Made by a program: the position numbers and the translations under genes | Shown here: one piece after another, positions 29,915 through 56,858 of the stretch | Layout of the letters: the number at the start of each line of letters is the position of its first letter | Numbering within the stretch: position 1 is the first letter of the stretch | Origin: a virus | IMG/VR virus record: IMGVR_UViG_3300045988_176106 | Strand: one strand, 5' to 3' | Length of the DNA: 64,000 nucleotides | Notes under the pieces: model-generated | Told to the model about the DNA's origin: nothing | The model's database searches: none | Seen by the model: only the letters and a program-made list of their open reading frames with translations

Positions 29915-29936
29915 AGGCTGAGATTTCTCTCAGCCT
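29915..29936 (-). terminator. rho-independent terminator after dnaE
   Basis: Minus strand reads AGGCTGAGA-GAAA-TCTCAGCCT followed by TTTTCTTTTTT. It overlaps the dnaE stop codon. Confidence 0.7.
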
Positions 29937-31368
29937 ATCTTGTAGCTATCGTAACATCAGGAAGCTTGTTTAACATCCTTATTACATCGACATCAATCAA
30001 TTTGGTATAAAATGGTCCAAATCTCATTTCAAAATCAGAGTCTTTCCTATCTATATTGACAGAATCGTATTTATTAGTAGGCACTTTAACCACTATTGAT
30101 ACAGCACCATCTGAGTCATATTTATTCTCAGGAATAATTTCTTGTATCTTATTCAATATAGACTTAAATCTTACACTACTAGGAATATCATCTAATATAA
30201 TAAAAGCTTCTTTTACTTTATTTTTATGTTCTTCTTCTCGAACCTGTTCTTTGCATCGTTCACCTAAATCTATAGCAACATTAACAATAGAATCAATTTC
30301 GCCATTACCTTTATAACTAGGCTTAGCAGATATAACTAATTGAAGATAATTACCAGAACGTAAAATATCTTTTAGTTTAGTATAATTAGGATCAAACACA
30401 GTAGCAGAAAAACGGTTTCCTTCACGATCTATACAATCTAGGAAGCACATCTTCTTACCAGTACGAGTATTTAAAGCACGAACAGATGAAATATAAGCAA
30501 CAACAGACCCAGAAAACATACCTTTGTACATTACAGCAGATTTAACTTCTTCTGATGTAAAATGTCTTTCGGTAACAGTTTTTACTACTAGATCCATAGG
30601 ATCGCCAGAAATATATACTCCAATAAAATTCTTTTCGTCTTCAAGAATATCAAATAAAGAAAATTCTTTAAAGGTTTTATCATCAAAATATTCAGATTCT
30701 TTTGATAAAAATTCTTTATATCTTTCTTTTATTTCATTAGTCATCTTGCCATCTTTAGCTATTTCGCGCTTAAATGATTTCTTAGGATCAAAGTCTAATT
30801 TAAACTTTTCATAAGAACGGAGCATAACACTTCGTTTATATCCAAAACAATCCATAGATCCAGAACGTATTAAAGCATCAATAGCTTTTTTAGTAATACT
30901 TGATCCAAATAAATGTGTTTTTAATAAGAAATCGCCGAAACTTTTAAATGGGCGCAATTCCATAATTTGCTTATAAATAGGTTCACCAATATTAACAATA
31001 CCAGATAAACCATAAATAATATCATTATTCCTATCTAGTGTAAAACTACTATCAGATTCATTAAGATTAGGAGGTAAAATTTTAATACCATGAGCTTTAG
31101 CATCTTCCATATAAATACGTTGAGTAGTAGAATCAGTCTCACAACTTATAATAGAACAATAAAACTCATTAGGATAATTGGCTTTAAGCCAAGCAGTATA
31201 ATAGGTCAAGTGACCATACGAGTAGGCATGCGAAGCATTAAATGCATACTGCGCAAACAGCATTAGTTCTTCCCAAAATGAACTAACTTTCCTTTCATCT
31301 TCGCCAGAAGCAACAGCACCACTAATAAACTTATCTCTTAGTGATGCAAGTAAAGCAGCATCTTTTTT
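29935..31368 (-). CDS. dnaE: DNA polymerase III alpha (DnaE-type), C-terminal gene, exon 4 (fingers end, beta-binding/OB region)
   Basis: FNASHAYSYGHLTYYTAWLKANYP aligns with E. coli [24 protein letters not shown], and GIKILPPNLN with GLKILPPDIN. The exon starts right after the intron-terminal G (..ATAATTG|AAAAAAGAT). Confidence 0.85.
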   Translation of the reverse strand, partial: KKDAALLASLRDKFISGAVASGEDERKVSSFWEELMLFAQYAFNASHAYSYGHLTYYTAWLKANYPNEFYCSIISCETDSTTQRIYMEDAKAHGIKILPPNLNESDSSFTLDRNNDIIYGLSGIVNIGEPIYKQIMELRPFKSFGDFLLKTHLFGSSITKKAIDALIRSGSMDCFGYKRSVMLRSYEKFKLDFDPKKSFKREIAKDGKMTNEIKERYKEFLSKESEYFDDKTFKEFSLFDILEDEKNFIGVYISGDPMDLVVKTVTERHFTSEEVKSAVMYKGMFSGSVVAYISSVRALNTRTGKKMCFLDCIDREGNRFSATVFDPNYTKLKDILRSGNYLQLVISAKPSYKGNGEIDSIVNVAIDLGERCKEQVREEEHKNKVKEAFIILDDIPSSVRFKSILNKIQEIIPENKYDSDGAVSIVVKVPTNKYDSVNIDRKDSDFEMRFGPFYTKLIDVDVIRMLNKLPDVTIATR

Positions 31369-31610
31369 CAATTATGTTATTCTATTGGCTTTTTATCCAA
31401 TAGTTCTTATACTTCATATTTGTATAAGTTCGGCGTACATTTTCATCCTATAGGGATGTCGAACACTCTTGGAGATATTATATCTTTTCAATCTCTACGC
31501 TCTACGGTGGCTTATAGTTTCTATAAACTTACCTCGGTATTAGCATCTCAGCCTTCACCGATTTTGCTCGATACACATTGTTTTATTACTAAAACAAGGG
31601 GCAATTACTC
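31369..31610 (-). mobile_element. group I intron (ORF-less) in dnaE, intron C
   Basis: It interrupts LRKAVG|KKDAAL (E. coli LRRAMGKKK). The 5' exon ends in U (GGT|GAGTAA), and the intron ends ..AATTG. It is a GC-richer structured island sharing GAAGGCUG-type blocks with introns B and D. Confidence 0.7.
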
Positions 31611-32067
31611 ACCTACAGCTTTTCTTAGTTTATCTGCTTCTATCTCTGTGAATCCGCACATATCCATTGATAAACGGAGGAAACCTTCCTGAAAAATCAA
31701 TTCGTTATGTGCATTTTCAAAAATATAATTATATTTTGGGAATATAAAGTCAGTCTTAGGGATTTCTCCACTGATCTTACCAATTATACGTTCGACCAAG
31801 CCATGTATACCCATTGGCCCAGGCCGCCATGTACTAACACATACTGCTATATCATGTATTGTTTTAGGTTTACACTTATTAATAAAAGAAGACATACCAG
31901 ATTCTTCAAATTGGAATATGCCATAATTACGCCTATCCCACATAATCTTATATGCTTTTTCATCATCCATTGGTAATGTATACCAATCTATATCAATACC
32001 ATGTCTATCTTTAATAAGCTTCTTAGCATACTCAAGTACGCCAAGCGTTTTTAAACCTAATATATCT
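31611..32067 (-). CDS. dnaE: dnaE C-terminal gene, exon 3
   Basis: DILGLKTLGVLEY...GIFQFEESGMSS...TWRPGPM...LIFQEGFLR aligns with E. coli FDFLGLRTLT...AVFQLESRGM...LFRPGP...ILYQEQVMQ. The frame extends upstream of the ORF-track Met. Confidence 0.85.
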
Positions 32068-32337
32068 CAAAAAAATTCTATATATCAAATATATAGTGTT
32101 AAGTTTTTTATCTTAACAGTCCAGACTTCTTTTAATCTGGTTCGGCATATTTTTTCAACCGTTCTGGTTGCACCGGCCTCGTGGGTAGATTATATTCTGA
32201 TTAACAGTTTCACCACCTATGCTCTGCGCCTGACTATTGCTTTAAAATAGCCTTCGGACTCGAGTTAGCATCACAGCCTTCTCGCTTAATTCCGGTGTAA
32301 TAATAACCAATATTCCTATTGGAAACGCCAGATTCCT
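32068..32337 (-). mobile_element. group I intron (ORF-less) in dnaE, intron B
   Basis: It splits codon CT|A in YAGIVKL|DILGL (E. coli YAGLVKFDFLGL). The 5' exon ends in U and the intron ends ..TTTTTTG. It shares long sequence blocks with the recA intron (for example ttctcgcttaattccg and cggcctcgtgg). Confidence 0.75.
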
Positions 32338-33293
32338 AGCTTAACAATACCAGCATATTCTTCAATTTTGTTCCCTTCCCATTGGGTAACAGTTTTACCT
32401 TTACTATCCCATAATGGAACATCTTCCCATAATGGTCTATCGGATAACGCTACTCCACAATTATGTACTGCAATACCATTAGCAACATATGAAGAATCAT
32501 CTAAAACAGTAAGATTATATACATTAACTGTTTCATCATTCGATTCATTGTAATAATTAGACTGTTTCCATACATCAAGAACTAATCTTGTGGAAAGGCC
32601 TTTCCCTCCGGTATGTGAACTAACAACACCATAATGGCGACTTACATTTCCTGCTTTTACCCACCTACATTTACCAATATATAATCCATCTTCATCTGGC
32701 TCATCACTAAGACTGTCAAGTATAAGAATAGGATGATCAAGTGTACATTTTACAAATGAAAAATCATCATAATTAGTTTGTTGATAGGCTAGATGAACAA
32801 GATTACTCTTTTTAGATTCATTTACTTGAGTATCTACTACAGGTTTCCAATTTAATGAAGCTGTTAAAGCTAAATATCCAACCTTAACATCTTCGATGTT
32901 CATATACTCAGGTTCAGAATCTTCAGCTCTTTTTATAGTAACTTTGGTTCCTGCAACGAAGCAAGCATGCAATCCGGTACTTGAAATACAGTCTTGTAGC
33001 TTAATAGCATCATCCCAGATTTCTTTAATTTCTGGATCAGAATTATAAAGTTTCTTTATATCAGAATTTTCTTCTAATAAAACTTCTAATCTGGGACAAT
33101 TTATATCAGGCATAAGATTAGAAATCTTATTTGCCTTTTCAAATGACATACCATGAATGCGGGCAGCCGATTTAAATACTTGTTTACCAGCGGTATAAGT
33201 AATAGTACCCAAATGAGCAAATCCATCACCGTATTTTGCTTTTAAATAATCAAATACCTTTTGACGTTTATCATTACTGAAGTCACTATCGAT
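32338..33293 (-). CDS. dnaE: dnaE C-terminal gene, exon 2 (contains the mini-intein)
   Basis: IDSDFSNDKRQKVFDYLKAKYG...ITYTAGKQVFKSAARIHG aligns with E. coli FDVDFCMEKRDQVIEHV...[20 protein letters not shown]. It is in frame for 27 codons upstream of the ORF-track start. Confidence 0.85.
32460..32963 (-). mobile_element. 168-aa mini-intein in DnaE (no endonuclease domain)
   Basis: It is inserted at GLHA|C...VHN|CGVAL (E. coli KHAGGVVI). Block A is CFVAGTKVTI, block B is CTLDHPIL, and blocks F/G are VYNLTVLDDSSYVANGIAVHN followed by +1 Cys. Confidence 0.8.
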
Positions 33294-34394
33294 CCTTTAT
33301 GTTCAGTATGGGTCGCTAATTCCATACCCGGGAATAACCCAGCTGCATATTACTATGCAGAGCAGACTATATCTTCACCATATTAAAATTAACTTAGGTG
33401 CTGTGCGCTTGGAGCCGCTTGGCTCTACTTCCAAAGGAATAGTCGTTACACGTTCAATATATAAAATATCGCTTCGCTCGGTATTGTCCATGTAGGAGTT
33501 CCACCGAATTCACACAGTTTTCATTTACTCTTTTCAGAATAAAGGGACTTTAAATCAACAAATCTATTATATTTTCTATCTAAAAATATAGTTGAATCAT
33601 TATATAGATAATTCATAATATTGAAAACCTGAATGTTCCCACCAATATCTATATCATAATTATCATTATTCCTGTCCTTATGTCTTTTATTAAGGGTTTT
33701 ATGTTCAAACCCTATATATTTAAGGACAGAATTTAAAAAAGAAGAAGTTCCGCATAGCCTAAATCTATAAGTATATCCATTTTTTGCTTTATGTTTAGAT
33801 AATGACCCATCGCCATCAAAATACCCACGTATAAAATGACGAACAAGATTCTCATCTATATTTGGAAAAACTAATTTAAAAGTCTTGTTTTCTAAACATC
33901 CATGACTTATCAGATCATTCTTAAGTTTATTACTATAAATAATTACCCTAGCATACTCTCTATTAATATTATTAGTGTACCTAGATATTTTATTATTAGC
34001 ATTAAGACTTGCTAAAAATTTCTCAAGATGATTGATATCTTCAGTTGAAAGCGACAGTCCTATAGCATCTCTATCTGAAAGTATATATCCATCTGCATAC
34101 ATAAACCCAAGCCAATATGCTTTTTCTTCAGTATCTATAATATTGAAAAAATTATCATTACATTTATATTTTTTAGAATTTATAGAATTACTTCTTCTTT
34201 TTATATTTTTAGATTCAAGAACCGAATATACAGTATATAAACTTATGTCAAGTTCTTTTGAAATTTTGCATCCAGAGATTTTATCATCTGTATACATTTT
34301 TACAATTTTATCTTCAATTTCCATATATACACCTTTCAAAAAAATTGATGTATACATATAGTAATTTATAATTTAAGATTTGTCAATAATATTA
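33294..34394 (-). mobile_element. group I intron with a LAGLIDADG ORF in dnaE, intron A
   Basis: It separates ..GGGFPD| from |IDSDF (E. coli MPDFDVDF, the catalytic Asp pair). The 5' exon ends in U (GAT|TAA) and the intron ends ..AAAGG. The 3' core contains GAAGATATAGTCTGC (S-like element). Confidence 0.8.
33521..34324 (-). CDS. LAGLIDADG homing endonuclease (intron-encoded), with an N-terminal HTH
   Basis: Two LAGLIDADG motifs (WLGFMYADGYI and IRGYFDGDGSL). Start placed at MEIEDK, preceded by AAAGGTG. The ORF-track start at 34357 is also possible. Confidence 0.85.
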   Translation of the reverse strand: MEIEDKIVKMYTDDKISGCKISKELDISLYTVYSVLESKNIKRRSNSINSKKYKCNDNFFNIIDTEEKAYWLGFMYADGYILSDRDAIGLSLSTEDINHLEKFLASLNANNKISRYTNNINREYARVIIYSNKLKNDLISHGCLENKTFKLVFPNIDENLVRHFIRGYFDGDGSLSKHKAKNGYTYRFRLCGTSSFLNSVLKYIGFEHKTLNKRHKDRNNDNYDIDIGGNIQVFNIMNYLYNDSTIFLDRKYNRFVDLKSLYSEKSK

Positions 34395-34649
34395 ATCCGG
34401 GAAGCCACCACCAACAGTATCAATACGTTTATGTGGCTCGATAGTTGTCATACCCAGTAAATATAAAATATTACTACTATTTGGATTATCAAGGTCTTTA
34501 ATACCAGCATTGTAAAGATTTAAAAAATAAGAATCAATATGATGGAGCTCACAATGATTAAGCTCAAACATGATATTCTTCTTATTATGCAAAAACCACT
34601 CCTCTTGGGAGTGGCTTAATACTAATTCTCTTAAAGTTTTATATTTCAT
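34395..34649 (-). CDS. dnaE: dnaE C-terminal gene, exon 1 (own start codon; unique 60-aa leader, then the palm segment up to FPD)
   Basis: It ends ..NILYLLGMTTIEPHKRIDTVGGGFPD and joins IDSDF of exon 2. The TAA directly after GAT is intronic. Confidence 0.75.
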
Positions 34650-34660: not shown

Positions 34661-34924
34661 TTAGAATAACTCAAGTTGAGGATTTTCATATGCCCATCCC
34701 CATACTTCAAATTCAGTATCAGATACCATTTCAATAGTGAACTTTTTATTTTTAAGAATAGAGATAATTTTGTCAACAATATGTGGCTCATATGATTCCA
34801 ATTTAAATACATGAGAATCTTTACCTTTGCTTGCTGCATCAAATATAGCATCCCAAATAGGTTTCATTATATTATTTAAACCTTCTTGGTACAATGCATT
34901 TGCTTTATCTAATTCTTGATTCAT
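34661..34924 (-). CDS. hypothetical protein (last gene of the dnaE-splitting cassette)
   Basis: 87-aa ORF. No motif recognised. Confidence 0.4.
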   Translation of the reverse strand: MNQELDKANALYQEGLNNIMKPIWDAIFDAASKGKDSHVFKLESYEPHIVDKIISILKNKKFTIEMVSDTEFEVWGWAYENPQLELF

Positions 34925-34935
34925 ATTAATTCTTT

Positions 34936-35544
34936 CTAAGTAAGTTTAAAAGTTTTTTCCCAATAATACATTAAAGGTTTAGAGCAATATTTAATATAGT
35001 CTAATGCACTAATATTTTTAGGTAGTAGGTCTACAATAGCACATATTGCAGGTCCTTCTATATAAGCAGAGTGCTTTAATGTACAATCAAAAATAAAAGG
35101 TTCGCCATCATTATATTTTTTTATTGTCTCTTCCGAGTCAGAAGAATCTTTTTTATAAATGGTAATTTCTGGCGGATTAGTATAACGAATAGGAATAAAT
35201 ATTCTTATTCTACGATCATCAAAATTATGATCATCTACATGTGGATCTACATTACAATCTTCAAAAAGATTAAATTCAATAGAGGCTATTTTATATCCTT
35301 CTAAAGCTAATATTCTATTAAATGAATTTACACCCTTTAAAAGATCATAATAACCATTAAATCCAGTCCTGTATAATGCTTCCGTATTGATTATATCAAT
35401 ACCATATACTACAGCACTACGCCAAATGCCACTATACGTATCCATTGTATTATCAAAACTTACATCTTTATACGTTTCTGCAGTTTTATGAAAATAATTT
35501 GATATAGTGGTTTTAAGCTCGTTTATTCTCTTTGGGAATATCAT
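34936..35544 (-). CDS. cupin-type Fe(II)/2OG oxygenase-like protein (Asp/Asn beta-hydroxylase-like)
   Basis: HxD...H triad candidates VDPHVDDH ... RIRIFIPI ... FIFDCTLKHSAY. Paralogous layout to the upstream ORF. Confidence 0.45.
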   Translation of the reverse strand: MIFPKRINELKTTISNYFHKTAETYKDVSFDNTMDTYSGIWRSAVVYGIDIINTEALYRTGFNGYYDLLKGVNSFNRILALEGYKIASIEFNLFEDCNVDPHVDDHNFDDRRIRIFIPIRYTNPPEITIYKKDSSDSEETIKKYNDGEPFIFDCTLKHSAYIEGPAICAIVDLLPKNISALDYIKYCSKPLMYYWEKTFKLT

Positions 35545-36103
35545 CTATATATCTTTCTTTGTAATATTTATAAATAATCCCTAAATCATTAATGGATAAT
35601 CCATCTTTGTATATATCCATTATTAGGTAGTATCCATCATTCTCTTCTTGAATAAGAGAATGTGGCTCCATAGGTTTAAATATAGAAAACTGATACATTT
35701 GATCAAGTCTATGCTCATGATCTGTATTAAACAAACATTTTCCATCAGACATAGACATTATGATTCTAAAATCAATGTATTCATTTACTTTTTCAGAATC
35801 AGAATGCTCACCAACAATAGATCCTTCTGAAAATTTATTTATCCATGCAAACCCAATTTCATTATCATATAGCACATTATCTATACCATACAAATTATTA
35901 TTCCATGAAAAAGGATATACAGGGAAAGCAGACCATTTTGACTTAGAAAAACATATATGATCTATTGCATCTACGTTTTTCTTAATAATCAATCCATTGC
36001 TATCATCATCAATAATCTTTTTACAAAAAGAATTTTCATGCATCCACTTTATGATGTTTTGAATTCTATTTTTTAGGTTTTCTGCACCCATAAAATATAC
36101 CAT
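35513..36103 (-). CDS. cupin-type Fe(II)/2OG oxygenase-like protein, paralog of 34936-35544
   Basis: IVGEHSDSE ... FRIIMSM ... FKPMEPHSL (HxD...H). The true start may be the Met at 36091. Confidence 0.45.
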   Translation of the reverse strand: MVYFMGAENLKNRIQNIIKWMHENSFCKKIIDDDSNGLIIKKNVDAIDHICFSKSKWSAFPVYPFSWNNNLYGIDNVLYDNEIGFAWINKFSEGSIVGEHSDSEKVNEYIDFRIIMSMSDGKCLFNTDHEHRLDQMYQFSIFKPMEPHSLIQEENDGYYLIMDIYKDGLSINDLGIIYKYYKERYIDDIPKENKRA

Positions 36104-36734
36104 AATCTTTCCAAGATTTAAAATATCTTTTATTTATAATAACATCATCCCAGTCAAGAGATACGATTGAGCCGTTAATTATAAAATCAATGTAACTTAA
36201 TCCACCATATCCTATCATTATACCTTCTGGGCGCAATATATTATAAAGTCCAGAAGCATATTCATTATATGGATCAGCAGCAAGATCATCTACAAGATCA
36301 ACAACTATCAAATCAAATGTCTGAGTATTTTCTTTTAGAAAATCTTGAATTTTGACTTCATTAATATTCAGAAATGATTTATTTTCATAGCAGTGTTTTT
36401 GCTCACTATAAATCCTTTCAGGAATATTATCCTTATTTTCCTCAAGTAACTCAAAATATTTAGAAACTCCAGGGTCAACAAGCGTTATTCTATTCTCATT
36501 TGATAAGAATGTTTTGCTGCTAAGCAATTGGAAATCTCCACCACCAACAACAAGTATATTTAAAAATTCTTGAGGGGCTTTACCAGGAGGAAACATAGAA
36601 TTAAACACTCTCTGAAACATTAAGGAATATGTATAATATTCTCTAGATGCACTCCATTGAATCGCTCCATCTATATAAAATCCAGGAGAAGATATATCAG
36701 TTTTAAATTCTGGTACCATATTATCTATCATCAA
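36066..36734 (-). CDS. spermidine-synthase-like (PABS family) aminopropyl/methyl-transferase
   Basis: LNILVVGGGDFQLL (compare SpeE VLIIGGGDGG) and FDLIVVDLVDDLAADPY...LRPEGIM (compare DVIIVDSSDPxGPA...L..gG). Confidence 0.5.
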   Translation of the reverse strand: MMIDNMVPEFKTDISSPGFYIDGAIQWSASREYYTYSLMFQRVFNSMFPPGKAPQEFLNILVVGGGDFQLLSSKTFLSNENRITLVDPGVSKYFELLEENKDNIPERIYSEQKHCYENKSFLNINEVKIQDFLKENTQTFDLIVVDLVDDLAADPYNEYASGLYNILRPEGIMIGYGGLSYIDFIINGSIVSLDWDDVIINKRYFKSWKDYGIFYGCRKPKK

Positions 36735-37284
36735 AACAGAAAGTAAAATCTTTAGTTAAATCTGTTATATTATATTTATTTATAACAGCATCAACCTTTT
36801 CTTTTGTATAGTTAGTTTCACCAACTACAATACGATATTCATCAGTTATTTTAAATTCTTTTAATTCTGGAATAACAGACTGAACAACAGAGACAATTAA
36901 TTTATTCCATGTATTGTATTCAAAGAATCTATAATTATTTGATATTAGAGTGCCTCTAATTGCTATAGCTCTAATTATTTTTAATATAGCCATCTTGCAT
37001 GCATGTCTATGCATAAATGCAATGCCACCTATAGCTGAATTAGTTTCATCTATATCTTGACTAAAAAATCCTACATCTTTATATCCTGTATTAACTATAT
37101 ATAAATCTTGAGGAAGCTTAGGATTAACATAAGTCTGCACAGTTCTTAAATCTCTTTTTCCTGGGAATACATCAGTAATCCAGTCATCAAAATCCATTTG
37201 ATAATCATTAATCTGATAATCTTTGTTTATACATTCAATCATAAACTCAACATCAGATTCAGTAGCTTTTCTAATAGAAATCAT
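36721..37284 (-). CDS. GNAT-like acetyltransferase (weak call)
   Basis: It has an N-terminal IRKATESDVEFM opening typical of GNATs and is 187 aa. The acetyl-CoA loop is not clearly identified. Confidence 0.3.
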   Translation of the reverse strand: MISIRKATESDVEFMIECINKDYQINDYQMDFDDWITDVFPGKRDLRTVQTYVNPKLPQDLYIVNTGYKDVGFFSQDIDETNSAIGGIAFMHRHACKMAILKIIRAIAIRGTLISNNYRFFEYNTWNKLIVSVVQSVIPELKEFKITDEYRIVVGETNYTKEKVDAVINKYNITDLTKDFTFCFDDR

Positions 37285-38384
37285 ATTTTAAGTCTTTCAA
37301 ATATTTTAGGTAGATTATATATATATTTGTCTATAAATGGACTTATAGTTTTATCTCCAACATCAATTGCCATTACAATTTGATATAATGGACGGATAAT
37401 TAAATCTTGCCATTCATCACTTAGCCAATATAATTTATCATCTACCTTTAAATCTCTGTATTGTATATTTTTAACAGAACATAATGTAAGATTGTTTTCG
37501 TTCTTTTCTACAAATGGGAAAGATCCATTATCAATTTTTAAATTATTTTTATTAAAAAACTGTATCACTTTAGGAGAGAAAAACATTTCTTCTTCATTTG
37601 CAGCATGGTCTCTACACATGTAGATATTACCTCTAGGGCTTAATGCCCTAATCCATTTACTACATTGTGTCTTTTCCCCGTTATTATACCAAGATGAAGA
37701 TAATAACTCTTTAGCAATAAATAATTCAACCTCACCAATCATATTATTATCAGAAATATCTTTTATAACTTTATAGATATTTTTAATAAATGCTTTCATA
37801 AACTTTTGAGGAATAACAACAGCTTTATCAGTTTGAAATATAGTTAATGGCTCATAAGAAAAATATCTTACTCCAATATCAAAAAATTTTTTATAATTTT
37901 TATATATATTAGAATAATTAGATATATTATATAATACAGAACTTATACCAACATTTGCGCCATTATTAATAAGAGTTTTTAAATTTCGAATAACGAAGTT
38001 ATATTCCTCTAAACTATTAAATCGCTTAGCGTTATCTTCATAATCAAATCCATCAAGAGATAATAATATCTCATCAATGTTATTAGCTATAAAAGATAAA
38101 TCCTCATCAGAATAATCTTTAAAGACACCATTGGTATAAAGTCTATAAGAAAACTTTTTATCAGAATGCTTACTACTAATAAGCTTTATAGTATCAAATA
38201 TTAAATCTTTATGTAGCGTAGGTTCGCCACCATAAAACTCTACAACATTTTTATTAGTAGAGTAGGTACTAATAAAATCATCTATTTTATTTAAATCTAA
38301 AAACGGACTCATATTTTTAGACTGTATACAGCAGTATGTACAATCCAAATCACAATGGTTACTAAATACAATAGGTAATAACAT
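37281..38384 (-). CDS. radical SAM enzyme with a C-terminal Cys-containing (SPASM/twitch-like) extension
   Basis: CX3CX2C at residues 11-18 (NHCDLDCTYCC), EFYGGEPTL, and later CSKWIRALSPRGNIYMC. The layout resembles anSME/peptide-maturase enzymes. Confidence 0.75.
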   Translation of the reverse strand: MLLPIVFSNHCDLDCTYCCIQSKNMSPFLDLNKIDDFISTYSTNKNVVEFYGGEPTLHKDLIFDTIKLISSKHSDKKFSYRLYTNGVFKDYSDEDLSFIANNIDEILLSLDGFDYEDNAKRFNSLEEYNFVIRNLKTLINNGANVGISSVLYNISNYSNIYKNYKKFFDIGVRYFSYEPLTIFQTDKAVVIPQKFMKAFIKNIYKVIKDISDNNMIGEVELFIAKELLSSSWYNNGEKTQCSKWIRALSPRGNIYMCRDHAANEEEMFFSPKVIQFFNKNNLKIDNGSFPFVEKNENNLTLCSVKNIQYRDLKVDDKLYWLSDEWQDLIIRPLYQIVMAIDVGDKTISPFIDKYIYNLPKIFERLKI

Positions 38385-38428: not shown

Positions 38429-39070
38429 TTATTTTGAACAAGCTTCGGCAAGTCGTTTTTTAAAAGTCTCAACGCCAGATTTATTTTCATCAAATAAAAC
38501 AAATGGATGAGTAACTATTGGCTTAATCTCTTGATTCATATTTGCAACATAATCTCTAATAACAGCATAATAAACATCTGTTTCGTAGTCAAATACAAAT
38601 TGGTATTTTAAATCTATAAAATCAGATTCTTCTATTCCATTCCAAAGATCATATGTAGCAATAAGAGAATTAACAATAGCGTTAACTGTAGAAGAAATAT
38701 TATTTACATCATCTTTTGTTCTACTTATTAGTTTAGAAAAACTTCTTGGGACGTAGTACATCTCTACAAGTCCTAAACCAAAACGTAATAAGCTAATGCA
38801 ATTTATAAATTCCTTAGAATTTTTATCTACAGTTTCACTTTGAGATATTTGCTCTATTGCCCAATTAAATAGGTCTTTAATAGAGACATATATGTCCATA
38901 TCAAAATCTAGATCTTCTAAGTCATTGGCAAGAAAAAACAATCTTTCACAAAGTAACGTATCGTCTTTATCTCTTTGCCATTCATTTTTTAAAAAATCAC
39001 CAAGACGTTCTTTATTAGGATCATTTACGACAAAATTGTCAAAATCATAAAAAGAAAATTTGCTAGCCAT
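38429..39070 (-). CDS. hypothetical acidic protein
   Basis: 213 aa. Its start overlaps the stop of the 69-aa ORF (TAATG). No motif recognised. Confidence 0.45.
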   Translation of the reverse strand: MASKFSFYDFDNFVVNDPNKERLGDFLKNEWQRDKDDTLLCERLFFLANDLEDLDFDMDIYVSIKDLFNWAIEQISQSETVDKNSKEFINCISLLRFGLGLVEMYYVPRSFSKLISRTKDDVNNISSTVNAIVNSLIATYDLWNGIEESDFIDLKYQFVFDYETDVYYAVIRDYVANMNQEIKPIVTHPFVLFDENKSGVETFKKRLAEACSK

Positions 39071-39279
39071 TAACAGCTCCCAATAGAGTCTGTATAACCA
39101 TGAGTATGCTCAGATAAAGCTTCTAAAAATGTACGCATATCATTAATGTCATTAATTCTAATATCATCATTAGTAGATACACGTTTAACAGATCCAGCAC
39201 CATCAGTTCTCATAAGAGAACTACTACCAGTAGTCCATTGAGGAATACTGAATCCAACAGGTTTACTTGTTTCAGGCAT
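39070..39279 (-). CDS. 69-aa peptide (Gly/Ser/Thr-rich N-terminal half; C-terminus ..SEHTHGYTDSIGSC)
   Basis: RBS AAGGGA lies upstream. It is the first gene after the dnaE-N terminator and is coupled to the 213-aa ORF. Confidence 0.45.
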   Translation of the reverse strand: MPETSKPVGFSIPQWTTGSSSLMRTDGAGSVKRVSTNDDIRINDINDMRTFLEALSEHTHGYTDSIGSC

Positions 39280-39389: not shown

Positions 39390-40751
39390 TTACAATTCTT
39401 TATTATTCCATTCTTTCAATGGATAACCAGGAATTTCTACAAGAGGATATTTAGCACGACCACGATTTAAATATCTAGAAAATAACAGACCATAAGGAAT
39501 AGGATCAATAGCAGTCAACCCTAGCGCAAAGGATAATAAACTTCCGGCAGCACTTCCTCGCCCAGGTCCAGTCATAATATCATTATTTTTAGCATATTCA
39601 ATAATATCTTGAAGTACAAGGGGGTAAGAACTAAAACCCATTTTTTCGTAGAGACTCAATTCTTCTTCGAGTCTATCTTCATAAAGCTTTTTCTTGTCAT
39701 CTTCAAAATCTTTTGTATAAATATCATACCATGCATATGCACGATCTCTTAAAACTTTATCTGGATCATCAAATGGTTCTGGATATACCATCCTATCGCT
39801 ACTAGGTAATTCTACATTACACATTTCGGCAATTTTATTAGTATTCTTAAATGCCTCTAAATCTTCAGGATTAGAATAATATTCCTCAACAAGAACATGA
39901 TACGGTTTAACATAATACTGAGATGGCTGATAAAACATAGAATTATTATCCACATCAGAATCATCTTTTTCAGTATCTGTTAAATCAACATCTTTAACAG
40001 CCTTATTTAATTGTCCGCCAGTATTAAGCATAACAAGTTTCATATGAGAATCAGATTCCCAAGGATAAACATAATGGCTATCACAAGTAATAATCATTGG
40101 TATATCATGTTTTTTAGACAGCGCTGTTAAATTCTTATTAGCTAAATCTTGCTCTTTTAATCCAGTATAAGTCTTTTCGAGATAAAAACGGTCTTTAAAT
40201 ATATCTTTTAATATTAAAGCAATTTGTTCAGCTTCTTCTTCTTTGCCATCAAGATAAAGCTGATTTATAGGCCCACCAAGACATGCACTAGTACATATAA
40301 TCCCCTCATTATTTTCTCTTAATAAATCAAGATCAAATCTAGGTTTATAATACTTATATCTTGTCCATGCAATAGATGTAATTTTCATTAGGTTTTTATA
40401 CCCAACATTATTCATAGCGATAAGAAGGATATGGTAATTAGCCTTATATCCTTCTATTTTTTCTTTTCTTGAGCCGCTATGAAGAGTCATGTATCCTTCA
40501 TTTGCAAATATAGGTTTAATACCATATTTTTTACAAATTTTTTCTTGGTCTTTATGCCCCATCATATTGCCGTGCTCAGAAAGACACAATCCTTTAAATC
40601 CGAGAGCTTTTGCTCTTTCACAGTAATCTTGTAATTTCCCATAACCATCTAGTGGGCTAAACACACTATGCGCATGAAGATTAGTATACATACCAAAATC
40701 TTCAGGTTTAATATCTCCATTAGGATTATCAGGAGTAGATACAAAACTCAT
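39390..40751 (-). CDS. dnaE: DNA polymerase III alpha (DnaE-type), N-terminal gene: PHP domain plus first palm segment
   Basis: PHP motifs NLHAHSVFSPLDG and LSEHGNM. GPGRGSAAGSLLSFALGLTAIDPIPYGLLFSRYLNRGRA aligns with E. coli [39 protein letters not shown]. About 20 unrelated aa and a stop follow. Confidence 0.85.
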   Translation of the reverse strand: MSFVSTPDNPNGDIKPEDFGMYTNLHAHSVFSPLDGYGKLQDYCERAKALGFKGLCLSEHGNMMGHKDQEKICKKYGIKPIFANEGYMTLHSGSRKEKIEGYKANYHILLIAMNNVGYKNLMKITSIAWTRYKYYKPRFDLDLLRENNEGIICTSACLGGPINQLYLDGKEEEAEQIALILKDIFKDRFYLEKTYTGLKEQDLANKNLTALSKKHDIPMIITCDSHYVYPWESDSHMKLVMLNTGGQLNKAVKDVDLTDTEKDDSDVDNNSMFYQPSQYYVKPYHVLVEEYYSNPEDLEAFKNTNKIAEMCNVELPSSDRMVYPEPFDDPDKVLRDRAYAWYDIYTKDFEDDKKKLYEDRLEEELSLYEKMGFSSYPLVLQDIIEYAKNNDIMTGPGRGSAAGSLLSFALGLTAIDPIPYGLLFSRYLNRGRAKYPLVEIPGYPLKEWNNKEL

Positions 40752-41752: not shown

Positions 41753-42012
41753 GTTATAGAAAACCCTTTTAATTTAGAATCTTGTTCTTTAACTTTTACA
41801 TTAAAACCATTTAATTCTAACAATTTTATACAAATTCTAACATCATGTTCTGTATAATTCTCATTCATTTCGAAGGAATAACCATCATACAGATTAGACC
41901 CAGAAATATCAAGGCTATGATAACCATTAAATACTTGTCCTAAAGTACCAATAAAAAGAGAGACCGCATCCTTATGGGCGCGGTCATAAATAATATCAGA
42001 GAATTTACTCAT
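41740..42012 (-). CDS. hypothetical protein
   Basis: 90-aa ORF overlapping both neighbours. Confidence 0.4.
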   Translation of the reverse strand: MSKFSDIIYDRAHKDAVSLFIGTLGQVFNGYHSLDISGSNLYDGYSFEMNENYTEHDVRICIKLLELNGFNVKVKEQDSKLKGFSITWKK

Positions 42013-42451
42013 CTAATACTTCACTTTCAGAAGCTTCTTTTACATCTTCATCAGACATTTGATCAAAAATTGAGTCTTTATTCTTATTAACAATATGTCT
42101 CAATTCTTCTAGATGCTCTGGGTGTTCTTTATAATAAACACAACATCCATTTTCGCCCTGACATTTGATATATTCATCTTTATCATTTTTGACAGGGATA
42201 GTAAACCATGCACCAGCTCTAGTGATAATACCAGCTTTAACAGCTGTAGAAACTAATTCTTCAACAGCATTAAATCCTACACCAAAATAAAGATTACTTT
42301 CAGCAACACCAAATGGATTACCTACTTTATTTTTAACAACAGAGAATTCTACTCTTTGACCAATATAATTATCATTTAACCCTTTTATTCGCATAGATGG
42401 AGTAGAGTTAACTTTAACACGTGTACTTGAGTAAAATGGAATTGCTCTTCC
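42005..42451 (-). CDS. recA: RecA recombinase, exon 2
   Basis: GRAIPFYSSTRVKV...VVKNKVGNPF...GAWFT aligns with E. coli GNALKFYASVRLDI...VVKNKIAAPF...GAWYS. It starts right after the intron-terminal G (..CAAATTG|GGAAGA). Confidence 0.85.
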   Translation of the reverse strand, partial: GRAIPFYSSTRVKVNSTPSMRIKGLNDNYIGQRVEFSVVKNKVGNPFGVAESNLYFGVGFNAVEELVSTAVKAGIITRAGAWFTIPVKNDKDEYIKCQGENGCCVYYKEHPEHLEELRHIVNKNKDSIFDQMSDEDVKEASESEVLDE

Positions 42452-42751
42452 CAATTTGTTATCGCAGAGTTTTTTATCTCTGCTTCTACATCATTACAAT
42501 GTAGTTCAGCATATTTTTTTACCATATCTAAAAAGACTTAGGTATAGCGGCCTCGTGGAAGCATTATATTCTATTTATTAGTTTCAGCTTCTATGCGTTG
42601 CCCCTGACTGGGCCGTTAGGGCCAGCCTTCGGTTCGAGTTGTCCTATCTAAGAGGGAGGATTTTCTCGCTTAATTCCGCTATCGTGATTCATAATGTTTC
42701 CACTATGAACGGCAGAATAAATCATACTTAAGTAGTTGATTTATATAAATT
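42452..42751 (-). mobile_element. group I intron (ORF-less) in recA, intron D
   Basis: It interrupts GGSVTPG|GRAIPFY. The 5' exon ends in U (GGT|AAT) and the intron ends in G. An internal GCCG could pair with exon CGGU (P1). It is homologous to dnaE intron B. Confidence 0.75.
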
Positions 42752-43450
42752 ACCGGGAGTTACAGATCCGCCCCAAAGGTCCATCTTATCTCTTATTTGA
42801 TTAACAAATATAAGAGTTGTATTAGACCGTTTAAGAGGTTTCAGCAATTGAGGAATAGACTTAGACAAGAATCTAGCTTTTTCAGCCATAGTTTCTTGTG
42901 TAAAATCTCCACTCATTTCACGTTTAGTTTGTATTGCAGGCACACTATCCAAAATGATTAAACTGAATGCACCAGTTTTAATAGCATTATTTATAATATC
43001 AAATGCTTCTTCAGCAGAGTTAACTTGAGTAAATAAAATTCTCTCATCATTTTCCATATCAAGTCCAAGTAACTTCATATATCTAAAGTTTTGAGCTTGC
43101 TCTGCATCAATATACAATATAAATTTATCAGGATGCTTTTTAAGTGCATTAGCACAAGTCATAGTAACGATAGAAGATTTGCCACTACCAGACTGTCCAT
43201 GAATTTCATGAACTCTACCTTCTGCCCATCCACCATTACCAATAAGAGCGTCCAATATTGCACTACCAGTAGGGATGCCTTCAAGATTCATATCATAATC
43301 AGTTATAAATACTTGATCGCCATCACCATACTTTTTATTCATACTTCTTTTTAATATTTCTATTGCCGCTCTATTATCTTTTGATATTTCAGCAACAACA
43401 CCAGAAGATACTTCTTTATCTTCTTTTACATCTTTTGCAACTCTTGCCAT
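42752..43450 (-). CDS. recA: RecA recombinase, exon 1
   Basis: TGSAILDALIGNGGWAEGRVHEIHGQSGSGKSS (Walker A), IDAEQA, LIILDSVPA, and LIFVNQIR. Colinear with E. coli RecA. Confidence 0.9.
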
Positions 43451-45145: not shown

Positions 45146-45918
45146 TCCTTAATCCAAAAATCAATTTTATCTGAACCATAAATTAAAGCCATTTTTACTA
45201 TATTGCACATATCCTTATACGATAAATGTGCACCAGGAATTTTGTCATCAATAACATTTCCGGGGTAAATATTGAGAACTTTTCCTTCACTATTAGTAAG
45301 TGATATTCTATTAGTCAACTTAAGAGATTTACCAAGTCCAGGATCAGAAAGTTTTATTTCTTCTAAAACTTTATTAAGAAGATCCTCTACATTTATTGAT
45401 ACTAATTCTTCTGAATTTGTTATTACCTGGTCTTGTTTTTTAGAACCTAACTCTTTTTCTAATGGATCTTCGGCTAATCCAAAAGCTCCATCATCATGAA
45501 TCTTAGGTTCAGGTTTCATAACATTATCATTAGATTTTAAAAGTTCGAGATTCTTTTTAAAATCTTGGAGCAATTCCCAAAGTTGCATTTTATCATCGCT
45601 AACAGCAATGCTGGACGCATATTCCTTAATAGATCCAGTAAGGCCATATAATAGAACGCCTCTTTCTTTATCCACTATTGCGCCATTTAAAAGATCTTTA
45701 GCTTTATAAATCTTAGCGTCAATAAATTTACGAGCAATTACACCAAATAAACTATTAAAACATATAAATAAATTTTTATCAGATATGTCAATATCTGTAG
45801 ATGACACATCTAAAACCTTTATAAAGCTTTCAGAAACATCAATAAAAGATAAAACTTTTTTAATATCTTCTATATCAGTATTAGAAACTTTATCAGCTAT
45901 AATATAAACATTTTTCAT
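45142..45918 (-). CDS. hypothetical protein translationally coupled to the RT
   Basis: 258 aa. Its ATG shares one nucleotide with the RT stop (TAATG at 45916-45920). Confidence 0.45.
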   Translation of the reverse strand: MKNVYIIADKVSNTDIEDIKKVLSFIDVSESFIKVLDVSSTDIDISDKNLFICFNSLFGVIARKFIDAKIYKAKDLLNGAIVDKERGVLLYGLTGSIKEYASSIAVSDDKMQLWELLQDFKKNLELLKSNDNVMKPEPKIHDDGAFGLAEDPLEKELGSKKQDQVITNSEELVSINVEDLLNKVLEEIKLSDPGLGKSLKLTNRISLTNSEGKVLNIYPGNVIDDKIPGAHLSYKDMCNIVKMALIYGSDKIDFWIKD

Positions 45919-47954
45919 TAATTGACACCTATACTATTTTCAATAGTTTCAAATAGATTTATAAACTCTAAAGCAATTTTATCGCCATAAAAAATGGTTT
46001 TTAAATCAGAATAATATGATTTATCATTTATAGAATCAGAAAACACATCAAGCGGGAAAGAGATTATACTAGTATTTCTAAGATTAACTTTTGCAAATAA
46101 TCTTCTATCGCCAAGCTCATTATTACTTGCATAACTATAATTAAATAAAAAGTCTTTATATAATATATAATATATTAAAGTAAGTCTTAATTCGGGAATA
46201 CTAACTCTTTCCAATATATTCCTATTAGGAATAAATGCCCCACCAATGCTTTCATATTTTCTAATCGATATAGATTTCATAAATAAATCTGCGGAATCTT
46301 TTTCATGATATATGCGTATAATTGAATTAAGATATTCAGATTTTGAAACTTTTGAATTTTTAGATATGCTGTAAAACAATTCTCTGAAATCTTTTACTAC
46401 AGATTTATCAAAATATTTATCAAAAACATTTCTTAATCTATCGTCATTTAATTTAACATTCATACCATGATGGATAACGAAATCTTTGGTACCATTATTA
46501 TTAATACAATAAGATAAGAATCCTTTTGTTTTAGAGTCATAATTAAAATCCAAAGAATTAGAAATTAAATCAATCATTTCTTTACGTTTTGTAGATCCGA
46601 TATGAACAGTAGATTCAGAGGTCTTTCCAGGAGCAGGCACTACCAATCCCAAAATAGAAGCGTCTTCATGTCTTCTAAAAATCTTAGTCTTACTATAATT
46701 AAGATGAAGCCCATATCGATTAACAAGCTCATCTACTTTCTTAGCAATAGAGAAATCTATTTTATTTTCAGCAGACGTATTTGATGTGTAAATAGTAATA
46801 TCGTCAGCATATCTAATAAAATTATATTTAACATCCGTAGAAAGATCTTTTAGTAAACTTTTAAGTTTTATATCAAAATCCAATAAAAATATATTGCTTA
46901 ATACAGGGCTATAAGAAGCACCAGTAGGCAATTTATTATTATGCATTAAAAAAGACAGTGTTCTATAAAAGAATTGAAGAAAATATTCTCTTTTATCCGG
47001 CATACTTGGCTCTCTTAATGCAATAAATGAACCACTATCATTTACTTTATAAGACCCCGATACATTATTGCTACCAGAAGTAAAGAATTTATATAGCCTT
47101 CCCATCATTTTAATATCTTTGTATGGTTTAATTCTTCTAGGAAAAGCGAAAACACTTCTTATACTAAGCTTATTAAGATATATGCCATACTCATTAAATT
47201 TAAAAGATTTTGGACAACTTACTAAATCTTCAGATTCTTTAAACGAACTTTTTACAGCAGAAACATCTAAAGGCTTATTAAATACATACTCTAAATATTT
47301 ATATTTTTTACCAGAAATAGAATCAAATAAAATATTTACAACATCATTATCAAAGAATTTTTTCATATCAACATTGTTAAAAAATTTAGCAATGTCTATA
47401 TTAATAACTTCAGAGCGTTTATTCTGTAAAGTTTGCATTATTGACGCAATAGAAATATTTCTTCTAAATCCTATAATATTATGGTATAATCCTAAGCTTG
47501 AAATAGCTTTATCATATTCTTGTTCAAATATAAGAGTATAAAGACGATGAAAATATTTTATATTATTTATATCTTCTGCAGACAAAAGAGTATTTATAGT
47601 AGTGATTTTTCTACCTTTTCTATTTGTATAGTTCCTAAACAAAATTGTATCAGCAAAATCAGAAAGAAATTCAGATACAATAGAATAAGATTTTAATAGT
47701 TCGTCTCTTCCGCCAAAGTCGGGGAAATACATTTCCCGAAATTTATTTTTATTTACGCATTGGTTTAAAATGCCAATAGATTTAGTAACACTATCTTTAC
47801 TATTCTTGATATAGCATTTTTGACCTAAGTCTTTGTTAATGGCAGATTCACCTTTGATAATTTGATCTAAAATTAAGGAACACTTATTAGCATATCCAGA
47901 TGTAACAACAATAAGTGAATACCAAAATCTATTATCTGTAATATATCTATACAT
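45918..47954 (-). CDS. reverse transcriptase (retron/group II/Abi-like catalytic core) with large unique N- and C-terminal regions
   Basis: Motif A is INIDIAKFFNNV, motif B is LPTGASYSPVLSNIFL, motif C is FIRYADDITIY, and motif D is LHLNYSKTKIF. About 130 aa are inserted between motifs A and B, and the C-terminal region is ~230 aa. Confidence 0.85.
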   Translation of the reverse strand: MYRYITDNRFWYSLIVVTSGYANKCSLILDQIIKGESAINKDLGQKCYIKNSKDSVTKSIGILNQCVNKNKFREMYFPDFGGRDELLKSYSIVSEFLSDFADTILFRNYTNRKGRKITTINTLLSAEDINNIKYFHRLYTLIFEQEYDKAISSLGLYHNIIGFRRNISIASIMQTLQNKRSEVINIDIAKFFNNVDMKKFFDNDVVNILFDSISGKKYKYLEYVFNKPLDVSAVKSSFKESEDLVSCPKSFKFNEYGIYLNKLSIRSVFAFPRRIKPYKDIKMMGRLYKFFTSGSNNVSGSYKVNDSGSFIALREPSMPDKREYFLQFFYRTLSFLMHNNKLPTGASYSPVLSNIFLLDFDIKLKSLLKDLSTDVKYNFIRYADDITIYTSNTSAENKIDFSIAKKVDELVNRYGLHLNYSKTKIFRRHEDASILGLVVPAPGKTSESTVHIGSTKRKEMIDLISNSLDFNYDSKTKGFLSYCINNNGTKDFVIHHGMNVKLNDDRLRNVFDKYFDKSVVKDFRELFYSISKNSKVSKSEYLNSIIRIYHEKDSADLFMKSISIRKYESIGGAFIPNRNILERVSIPELRLTLIYYILYKDFLFNYSYASNNELGDRRLFAKVNLRNTSIISFPLDVFSDSINDKSYYSDLKTIFYGDKIALEFINLFETIENSIGVN

Positions 47955-56513: not shown

Positions 56514-56858
56514 CTAAAATACTACTTTACAACATAAAATTTCTCCAAATTTTATGTTATATTTTTCTAATGACAATTCTAATAAAGATTTAACCTCATC
56601 TTTATTTAAATCATCTTCAGAACATGTACTATATTGAATCGAAATATAATCATGTTCAGGAAAAGTATGCCAAGCGAAATGACTTGTTGATAATACAAAT
56701 ACTCCCGTATTTGCAATCATGTCTTCACTAAACATATAATGAGCACTAGAAACTATGCTCATATTTGCGTAATCACAAAATGTTTCAAACGCATTTTTTA
56801 ATTCCTCAAAATTATAAGTTGAAGAATTTTTCATATTAAAAATGTAGTGATTTAGCAT
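56514..56858 (-). CDS. speD: S-adenosylmethionine decarboxylase-like (SpeD/SpeH pyruvoyl family)
   Basis: VFVLSTSHFAWHTFPEHDYISIQYSTCSEDD aligns with B. subtilis SpeD [31 protein letters not shown]. The processing site reads T-S instead of E-S. Confidence 0.65.
   Translation of the reverse strand: MLNHYIFNMKNSSTYNFEELKNAFETFCDYANMSIVSSAHYMFSEDMIANTGVFVLSTSHFAWHTFPEHDYISIQYSTCSEDDLNKDEVKSLLELSLEKYNIKFGEILCCKVVF

Follow-up and report, generated by a model that had tools for sequence, protein, structure and literature searches.

Radical S-adenosylmethionine (SAM) enzymes that mature ribosomally made peptides are known from bacteria, where they make bacteriocins and cofactors. Among them, the thioether-forming maturases CteB, PapB and Tte1186, of the SCIFF and ranthipeptide systems, are the described enzymes closest to the locus presented here. 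The first auxiliary cluster of CteB has C344, C362 and C413 as its ligands and leaves a site open, the second has C400, C403, C409 and C432, and the binding of the cross-linking cysteine at the first auxiliary cluster has been examined in PapB and Tte1186 (PMC10177961). Viruses, for their part, are known to carry polyamine genes. Phages and giant viruses encode working S-adenosylmethionine decarboxylase (AdoMetDC), spermidine synthase and spermidine N-acetyltransferase, and phage homologues of SpeD have been shown to have switched to arginine or ornithine decarboxylation (Li et al. 2023, PMC9992855). Here, we describe a phage gene cassette that brings a radical SAM enzyme close to CteB together with a short conserved peptide (p69), a partner protein (p213) and a SpeE-like protein, all within the gap of a split dnaE gene. 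The cassette lies in virus record IMGVR_UViG_3300045988_176106 of IMG/VR; the whole stretch of 64,000 nucleotides that was analysed is called the window. It comes from a metagenomic contig of 186.8 kb (ENA ERZ28667310, scaffold_1), and its source is a large uncultured phage.

The gene string and its distribution

The string and the polymerase genes on either side of it comprise the following features (positions are those of the window; aa, amino acids; relatives' loci bear L numbers).

39390..40751, minus strand: DnaE-N, 453 aa, with the PHP domain and the start of the palm; it stops right before the catalytic PDxDxDF
39070..39279, minus strand: p69, candidate precursor peptide of 69 aa (conservation, selection, co-occurrence)
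38429..39070, minus strand: p213, partner protein of 213 aa, an open reading frame (ORF) whose start codon overlaps the p69 stop codon
38403..38422, minus strand: terminator-like hairpin that separates p213 from the radical SAM gene (stem of 8 bp, 6 of them GC, followed by a T-run)
37281..38384, minus strand: radical SAM enzyme of 367 aa that carries a single auxiliary-cluster motif of twitch type
36721..37284, minus strand: p187, GNAT-fold protein (AlphaFold2 model and Foldseek)
36066..36734, minus strand: SpeE-like aminopropyltransferase, 222 aa (Pfam Spermine_synth, PF01564)
35513..36103, minus strand: p196, N-terminal half of the relatives' two-domain cupin-like protein (BLASTP)
34936..35544, minus strand: p202, C-terminal half of that protein, a weakly Asp/Arg-hydroxylase-like cupin (alignment to the L010 protein)
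34661..34924, minus strand: 87-aa ORF (PHROG families of unknown function)
34392..34649, minus strand: first exon of DnaE-C, 85 aa, ending GGGFPD directly ahead of the catalytic motif

A preliminary description of this DNA placed a cassette of six genes at 34661-38384 and saw it as lodged inside dnaE. All six ORFs lie on the minus strand where they had been placed, with overlapping or abutting ends, and the setting is borne out by DnaE-N and the DnaE-C exon on the two flanks. The range given was two genes short. The string begins at 39279 and also takes in p213 and p69; the latter, named only in passing as a 69-aa peptide, is a real ORF that belongs to the unit. DnaE-N matches the Pfam families PHP (E=6.5e-42) and DNA_pol3_alpha (E=8.7e-29, profile positions 12-102 of 260), as well as the DNA polymerase family PHROG 405 (E=3e-118). 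The DnaE-C exon shares 41% identity (E=1e-17) with residues 7-90 of DnaE-C in L004, where this half is an unbroken 856 aa. The polymerase is a two-gene enzyme, and the cassette occupies the gap between its genes.

The comparison of relatives' loci covered some 10 kb to either side of the cassette. More than 25 related loci share the arrangement, with radical SAM proteins that show 31-57% identity to that of the window, which speaks against a chance grouping. In L158, L160 and 24 of the first 25 loci, the genes fill precisely the space between the DnaE-N and DnaE-C genes. Gene content differs between lineages as follows.

Sub-clades of the window, L003 and L010, in the dnaE gap: p69, p213, radical SAM, p187, SpeE-like, two-domain cupin
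L004, L005 and L158, in the dnaE gap: p69, p213, radical SAM, p187, SpeE-like, without the cupin
L160, in the dnaE gap: p69, a 365-aa protein with the p213 motif, radical SAM, p187-like, without SpeE-like
L025 (a 229 kb phage), away from dnaE: p213-like, radical SAM, a single cupin-motif protein, p187, SpeE-like, nuclease, SpeD-like
L132, L135 and L136, in the dnaE gap: p187 homologue only

What the sequences show directly is gene identity, conservation and co-occurrence. p69, the protein at the p213 position and the radical SAM gene are found together in every lineage examined, even in L025, where they are reordered (p69 lies 6 kb beyond the SpeD-like end of the cassette, and there is no dnaE within 10 kb on either side), and in L160, where the SpeE-like gene is missing. 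None of the three is present in L132, L135 and L136, whose DnaE-N proteins are 51% identical to that of the window, a value that is lower, at 44-45%, for L004 and L005. These three genes form a strict trio. The SpeE-like gene is usual but dispensable, the cupin is optional, and p187 can stand alone in the dnaE split.

The radical SAM family comprises 56 clusters, and the long contigs that carry it measure 150-344 kb. Relatives whose IMG/VR identifiers begin with 7000000 are presumably from Human Microbiome Project samples. Outside this set of contigs, a megablast of the cassette against 50,697 phage records gave no match, and a tblastn of the radical SAM protein against sequenced phages gave a single one, at 21% identity. 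Only generic radical SAM cores (22-33% identity), and no close relative, were found in 185,579 prokaryotic species genomes, which rules out the cassette as a prophage gene of known hosts. PADLOC defence-system models produced only a generic pVip core match to the cassette, and no paper describing the cassette was found in the literature.

Some loci depart from the common layout in other respects. Extra genes in L004, L005 and L025 have no Pfam matches; two ORFs upstream of the L025 radical SAM gene (5306-6187 and 6189-6704) are thymidylate-synthase-like and dihydrofolate-reductase-like by eye only. In L159 (ERZ2485795 contig_10233), the DnaE-N/RecA region is repeated in inverted order from about 11332, right after p69 paralogues, and this locus is probably an assembly chimera. 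L158, a 198 kb contig of that sample, runs collinear with the remaining loci.

The peptide p69, its partner and the radical SAM enzyme

The p69 family follows the motif MPET..P..W..G..(K/R)RV..D.I...DIN.LR...E.L..H.H.(Y/H).D..G..C, in which the cysteine is the final residue. Eleven positions are invariant among 16 family clusters (T4, W15, G18, R33, D44, N46, R49, H58, H60, D64 and C69), and the C-terminal segment holds H58, H60, D64 and the terminal C69. The residues just ahead of that cysteine vary (GS, GG, NG, RG or TG), and the N-terminal 40 residues are rich in Gly, Ser and Pro. An AlphaFold2 model built on the family alignment has a single helix (42-56), is otherwise coil and shows no compact fold. 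Among 5.8 billion proteins the family has 15 clusters, all on large contigs of this phage clade or on short fragments. Codon differences from L007 and L009, relatives whose radical SAM protein is 88% identical, number 11-12 synonymous to 1-3 non-synonymous, the tightest constraint in the operon. L158 carries three tandem copies, each beginning MP(E/Q)T and finishing ...H-x-H-x-(Y/F)-x-D-x-x-G-C.

The ORFs of p69 and p213 overlap by one base and are translationally coupled, and the same coupling is found in L003 and L004. Each lineage that has the radical SAM gene also has a protein at the p213 position; for distant members the relationship is weak (hhalign E=0.0013), and that of L160 shares a DYETD motif. 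Searches with p213 against Pfam, PHROGs, NCBIfam and PDB profiles, and against Pfam member by member, returned no match. The hairpin after p213 would favour an excess of precursor transcript; it is not conserved, and L003 has no gap at that place. Between its p213-like and radical SAM genes, L005 alone has three tandem paralogous ORFs of about 190 aa without Pfam matches (8079-9769).

The radical SAM assignment, proposed from a CX3CX2C motif and GGEPTL, is confirmed by both motifs, by the invariance of C11, C15 and C18 (C11-x3-C15-x2-C18) and by Pfam PF04055 (63.3 bits, cut-off 29.5). A C-terminal cysteine pair had also been likened to those of SPASM/twitch maturases, and here only part of the likeness holds. 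SPASM and twitch domains share a C-terminal CX9-15GX4C hairpin that ligates the first auxiliary cluster. The phage enzyme has this hairpin in invariant form, C241-x10-G-x4-C257, aligned with CteB C344...G357-x4-C362. The CX2CX5CX3C motif of the second cluster is absent from it. C241, C257 and C302 are invariant in 23 family members, and because C302 is the sole invariant cysteine after C257, the C-terminal domain is predicted to be twitch-like with one auxiliary cluster, short of a full SPASM domain. Judged by these ligands, the phage family appears to have kept the cluster that binds the cysteine and to have lost the other.

CteB is also the top solved match of the family profile (E=1.2e-21), with residues 3-291 aligned to CteB 98-399 and the auxiliary-cluster hairpin included. 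Viperins follow (4e-11), then sulfatase maturase and MoaA (1e-8). The top NCBIfam matches are PapB (4e-16), HxsB and the SCIFF maturase. Because the radical SAM motif already begins at residue 11, and the CteB alignment only at CteB residue 98, the phage enzyme has no N-terminal peptide-recognition (RRE) domain. An identity as viperin was rejected: the NCBIfam score is 36.4 against a cut-off of 180, and the matches are confined to the core, residues 8-189. The PADLOC pVip match (E=1.4e-13) likewise covers only the common core (residues 8-177), and the C-terminal domain aligns with the CteB hairpin instead. A housekeeping identity was also checked. Neither QueE nor the activase of anaerobic ribonucleotide reductase is among the 25 NCBIfam matches listed or the 23 PDB matches, so the finding survives.

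Other large phages carry radical SAM genes of a different kind. In L027 (5379-13172), and likewise in L026 and L028-L032 (jumbo phages, contigs of 99-288 kb), four SPASM-type radical SAM genes directly follow tail-fibre-like genes and surround a 131-aa ORF with a Cys-rich tail (CKCNCNDCHC). A relationship between p69 and this ORF was considered and dropped, as hhalign picked the same RV..D.I..DIN segment at a non-significant E=0.12.

Accessory enzymes and the surrounding genome

The protein first called spermidine-synthase-like earns that name from Pfam Spermine_synth (27.6 bits, cut-off 22.9), from a family profile that matches solved spermidine synthases at E=2.5e-14 and from its invariant motifs: G64-G65-G66-D67, D87 (VDP, the acidic ribose-binding residue), and D146 and D149 (D-x-x-D). 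The motifs align to GGGD and VDSSD of PfSpdS. Scores against the NCBIfam spermidine synthase equivalogs stay below the cut-offs (26/472, 18.7/260 and 17.6/249.55). By these motifs, the protein is a real but very divergent member of the aminopropyltransferase family and very probably an active aminopropyltransferase. In IMG/VR, its subfamily occurs only on cassette-bearing contigs and in one giant-virus bin. A second gene of polyamine type lies elsewhere in the window.

56514..56858, minus strand: SpeD-like pyruvoyl decarboxylase, 114 aa (Pfam AdoMet_dc, PF02675, E=1.7e-11)

This gene had also been noticed before, and its Pfam match (44.9 bits, cut-off 25) upholds the identification. Class 1b AdoMetDC is recognised by a self-processing Ser followed by H..HT(W/F)PE; the processing motif here is STSHFAWHTFPE, with Thr in place of the usual Glu before the Ser. 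From its sequence, the enzyme is a probable source of decarboxylated SAM; it could instead be an arginine or ornithine decarboxylase. In L025 a SpeD-like gene (13830-14273, ESH..HTWPE motif) is one gene beyond the SpeE-like gene, and the polyamine link suggested for the cassette is therefore real, in that a true SpeE-family enzyme is accompanied by a confirmed SpeD-like gene.

The GNAT-like label for p187 is backed by its predicted fold and finds no support in Pfam or PDB sequence searches, in which 10 distant relatives also lack a Pfam match. The AlphaFold2 model, which rests on a shallow alignment (the homology search yielded 4 proteins), is weak (pLDDT 62, TM-scores 0.3-0.5) and shows the GNAT order of strands and helices. 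With this weak model, all 50 PDB matches listed by Foldseek are GNAT acyltransferases, and each annotated BFVD match that names a fold names GNAT. The acyl-CoA loop Q/R-x-x-G-x-G/A is not found, and a conserved HP(R)(A/S)CKM stands in its place. The family has 46 representative clusters. In L132, L135 and L136, the ORFs of the lone p187 homologue and of DnaE-N and DnaE-C abut. p187 is thus a constant part of the dnaE split, and a role in the pathway is uncertain; its independent occurrence means that it may instead work for the polymerase. A caveat for this gene is accordingly due on the view that no cassette gene has a standard replication function.

Two tandem paralogous cupin oxygenases had been proposed for p196 and p202. 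Both have the HxD...H motif, and the paralogy was ruled out: it goes undetected by BLASTP, and the two match different halves of a single fused protein of 355-396 aa in relatives. p196, which has an EHSD...PHS motif and no Pfam match, aligns to residues 83-180 of the 396-aa L010 protein (E=3e-8), and p202 aligns to residues 218-389 (E=1e-30). The gene is split only in the window's own sub-clade, consistently over several independent assemblies. An alignment of 9 sequences shows the iron-binding triad of p202 (H102-x-D104...H158) to be invariant. Its Pfam score for Asp_Arg_Hydrox (PF05118) is below the cut-off (E=0.055, 13.7 against 22.6), relatives reach at best 5.4e-5, and a PDB profile search with the cupin family gave no match. 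About half of the codon differences in p202 are non-synonymous. The 87-aa ORF is real, as first described, and is restricted to the closest relatives; it is weakly constrained, with non-synonymous differences exceeding synonymous ones, and is probably outside the pathway.

The window as a whole is AT-rich (GC about 27-38%), and few of its proteins tested match PHROG families. Its replication module includes a primase-helicase, ribonucleotide reductase, ligase, RecA, RuvC, a MazG-like pyrophosphatase and a deoxynucleoside monophosphate (dNMP) kinase. Further features are these.

33343..34357, minus strand: group I intron in DnaE-C (Rfam RF00028 at 33343-33571, 86 bits, E=2.7e-21)
33521-34357, minus strand: LAGLIDADG endonuclease ORF in the intron (LAGLIDADG_3 recorded, marked faint)
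45918-47954, minus strand: reverse transcriptase, 678 aa (Pfam RVT_1)
48013-50932, minus strand: ThiF and JAB-like pair (Pfam, PADLOC)
59114-63956, minus strand: tRNA array, 12 genes and intervening ORFs

The DnaE-C half lies in at least five pieces across 29935-34649 (minus strand). An intein-like insert, from ...CFVAGTKV to ...VHNC, is present in the 298-aa ORF at 32316-33212, there are further gaps at 31971-32315 and 31372-31604, and the insertions vary in number and position among relatives. RecA is also split, into ORFs of 240 and 149 aa that are 273 bases apart (42005-43450, minus strand); a search of that gap for Rfam introns at E<=0.01 gave none, and RecA is one ORF in L004, L005, L158 and L160. 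The reverse transcriptase matches PADLOC models of defence-type and retron-type enzymes (E about 5e-20) and occupies the same place, upstream of RuvC/RecA, in L003, L158 and L160.

Next after the ThiF-domain protein (476 aa; Pfam ThiF E=7e-10; PADLOC E1-E2 models E=2.6e-8) comes one of 477 aa whose JAB match is weak (21.3 bits, cut-off 25), and then three large ORFs without matches (50937-54348). The ThiF and JAB-like genes look like a phage-encoded module of E1/deubiquitinase type, and ThiF adjoins the reverse transcriptase also in the distant relative L160 (L160 1-28). Adjacent ORFs at 55108-55943 (minus strand) match the ssDNA-binding family Whirly (E=7e-9), which is mainly a plant-organelle family, and SpoVG (28.1 bits, below the cut-off of 29.6). 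Near them are an HU-like protein (56958-57254) and a dihydrofolate reductase (57287-57784). In the tRNA array, ORFs 61400-61975 and 62080-62715 fall in a stretch with two HNH_3 matches, and tRNA-His (62656-62729) overlaps the second of these ORFs.

Possible products and comparison with known systems

Of the three kinds of system that the preliminary description had in mind, and between which it had left the choice open, the maturation of a ribosomally synthesised and post-translationally modified peptide (RiPP) is now the one favoured for the radical SAM enzyme, with CteB as its nearest solved relative and p69 in strict co-occurrence. That the cassette is a three-gene peptide-maturation core of RiPP type (p69, p213 and the radical SAM enzyme) plus add-on enzymes seems to us an evenly balanced proposition. 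By analogy with CteB, PapB and Tte1186, p69 would be a ribosomal precursor acted on by the radical SAM enzyme, and p213 may stand in for the missing peptide-recognition domain. The single three-Cys auxiliary cluster would bind the Cys69 thiol, and a bond would then form between its sulfur and a carbon of some other residue in the conserved C-terminal stretch. Candidate acceptors of this cross-link are the invariant D64 and its neighbours in the H-x-H-x-Y-x-D segment; PapB makes Cys-Asp links, which makes D64 plausible. The SpeE-like enzyme could move an aminopropyl group from decarboxylated SAM, suppliable by the phage's SpeD-like enzyme, and the two-part cupin may be an optional hydroxylase. 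Whether the aminopropyl group goes to the peptide (or to something cleaved from it) or to a free diamine is about an even bet. On the peptide side, where no lysine of p69 is invariant, the candidate acceptors would be the Cys sulfur, a His and the N-terminus. A more specific version, in which the C-terminal Cys of a 65-77 aa precursor is cross-linked by the minimal radical SAM enzyme with its one auxiliary cluster and then aminopropylated from phage-made decarboxylated SAM to give a peptide-polyamine hybrid, or a thia-polyamine-like small molecule, used during DNA replication, is put forward as a doubtful possibility.

Several points weigh against a peptide-maturation core. The radical SAM scores are far below the equivalog cut-offs (PapB 59.2 against 340; SCIFF maturase 47.8 against 425), the enzyme is a new branch, and twitch enzymes such as MoaA and BtrN also take small molecules and nucleotides. 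p69 offers no invariant lysine to take the aminopropyl group, and it is conserved over its full length, without a split into conserved leader and variable core, a pattern that suits a typical bacteriocin less well than a precursor of cofactor type or a small protein with a function of its own. No peptide-recognition homology is detectable in p213 by Pfam or PDB matches, and Pfam, PHROG and NCBIfam reveal no leader peptidase or exporter domain in the operon; an exporter may be dispensable for a phage that lyses its host. L160 has no SpeE-like gene (GGGD occurs nowhere in the locus) and p187 is found on its own elsewhere, so the string is not a single, indivisible pathway. Shared descent can also account in part for co-occurrence inside one clade.

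The enzymes could instead form a pathway for free polyamines or small metabolites without a peptide substrate, in which the SpeD-like and SpeE-like enzymes produce spermidine or one of its analogues, which then undergoes acylation (GNAT-fold protein), hydroxylation (cupin) and a change of its carbon skeleton (radical SAM enzyme), with p69 and p213 as unrelated upstream neighbours. Viral polyamine enzymes are known to work (PMC9992855), the SpeE catalytic motifs are intact, the SpeD-like gene is close to the SpeE-like gene in L025, and SpeG-type spermidine acetyltransferases are among the fold matches of p187. Such a pathway is nonetheless unlikely in our view: the radical SAM enzyme is closest to modifiers of peptides and proteins and not to small-molecule enzymes, p69 follows the radical SAM gene in every lineage, L160 without its SpeE-like gene included, the SpeE-like protein is very distant from true spermidine synthases (26 bits against 250-540), and p187 has no CoA-binding motif. 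We rate as improbable the modification of nucleic acids or nucleotides, whether as hypermodification of phage DNA, modification of the phage's own tRNAs or viperin-like altered nucleotides. The setting in a replication module with DnaE, RecA, the MazG-like pyrophosphatase, ribonucleotide reductase and dNMP kinase would suit it, as would the 12 tRNA genes and the viperin-like core, and known thymidine hypermodification pathways employ radical SAM and polyamine chemistry (PMC8989533, PMC5889632). The viperin likeness, however, is limited to the common core, QueE, TYW1 and Elp3 are not among the matches, and no hydroxymethylase, DNA base kinase or transglycosylase was found among 42 window ORFs scanned (mostly minus-strand genes at 15.6-63.4 kb); moreover, p69 would be left without a role, and in L025 the cassette is away from dnaE. 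The earlier suggestion of base hypermodification gains no positive support.

The position of the genes raises the further idea of a service to the polymerase, with p187, and perhaps p69 and p213, as accessory or assembly factors for the two-piece DnaE, or with the enzymes modifying the polymerase. The cassette lies exactly in the DnaE gap in nearly all the loci counted above, and a p187 homologue is the only gene in the gap of L132, L135 and L136. Yet because phages of the L136 type have a split DnaE that runs without p69, p213, the radical SAM enzyme and SpeE, the polymerase does not need these four; the L025 cassette has no dnaE nearby, and the sequences give no hint of binding to DNA or polymerase. 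We regard this service as a slim prospect. It is highly improbable that p69 acts as a ubiquitin-like protein or sulfur carrier, in which case JAB would trim its C-terminal G-(G/S)-C and the ThiF-like E1 encoded 9 kb upstream would activate it. ThiF-domain and JAB-like proteins are indeed encoded in the window, ThiF matches E1-E2 models, and carriers such as QbsE bear extra residues after GG. Against this, the p69 model is one helix and coil, not a beta-grasp, its N-terminal 40 residues have the Gly/Ser/Pro-rich composition given above and the residues before the Cys vary, the JAB match is under the Pfam cut-off, and the pair is not adjacent to the cassette.

If the trio is a peptide-maturation core, the cassette is a stripped-down maturation set kept by selection over a deep clade of 150-230 kb phages in human-microbiome and other metagenomes. 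With a peptide substrate, it would yield a phage-made modified peptide with a conserved, non-bacteriocin function, and the single terminal Cys would offer a clean model of how the first auxiliary cluster directs thioether formation. Should the SpeE-like enzyme act on the peptide, the SpeE family would be extended to a peptide acceptor. The trio is a compact three-gene system for heterologous testing. We know of no peptide-acting aminopropyltransferase, and of no clade-wide phage RiPP pathway inside a replicative polymerase gene.

The likeness to CteB, PapB and Tte1186 is the closest, both in solved structures and in NCBIfam: the cysteine pair of the first cluster is kept, the substrate gene is adjacent and the key residue of the peptide is Cys. 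In contrast to these enzymes, that of the phage has neither the N-terminal recognition domain nor the second auxiliary cluster, its scores are far under the equivalog cut-offs, p69 has only one Cys, as its very last residue, and the host of the genes is a large phage, within a replication operon. The pathways for pyrroloquinoline quinone (PQQ; PqqA/PqqD/PqqE) and mycofactocin (MftA/MftB/MftC) share with the trio a short precursor conserved over its full length, a small partner and a radical SAM enzyme with one or more auxiliary clusters; their product is a conserved small molecule and not a variable bacteriocin, and in mycofactocin the chemistry takes place at C-terminal residues. However, p213 has no detectable homology to PqqD or MftB, the phage operon lacks their peptidase and follow-on oxidoreductases, and the key residue is Cys in the phage, and Glu/Tyr or Val-Tyr in theirs.

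Microcin C (MccA-E) is a ribosomal peptide modified at its C-terminus, where it receives a SAM-derived aminopropyl group, and its cluster includes a GNAT enzyme. C-terminal chemistry, the aminopropyl group and a GNAT enzyme would all have counterparts here, and the phage genome also encodes a ThiF-type enzyme. Unlike the phage set, microcin C obtains its aminopropyl group through MccD and a pyridoxal-phosphate decarboxylase, not SpeE/SpeD, and has no radical SAM enzyme; its peptide is 7 aa long and ends in Asn, and the ThiF gene of the phage is 9 kb away. With virus spermidine synthesis (PMC9992855), the phage shares a class-1b-type SpeD-like gene and a SpeE-family gene in one genome. Its SpeE-like protein, however, is short, very divergent and clade-specific, its gene stands in one operon with those for a peptide and a radical SAM enzyme, and its SpeD-like protein has Thr-Ser, not Glu-Ser, at the processing site.

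The thymidine hypermodification systems of M6, ViI and PhiW-14 are also phage-encoded among DNA-metabolism genes and use radical SAM and polyamine-type chemistry (PMC5889632, PMC8989533). In contrast, the phage radical SAM enzyme belongs to the peptide-maturase branch, and dUMP hydroxymethylase, 5-hydroxymethyldeoxyuridine DNA kinase and aGPT-Pplase are not among the 42 window ORFs scanned. Overall, the parts of the cassette belong to known families, so that no new category is called for, and it is the combination and the setting that are new: a maturase with one auxiliary cluster and no recognition domain, a precursor whose only Cys is its last residue, an aminopropyltransferase peculiar to the clade, and conservation within a split polymerase gene across a deep phage clade.

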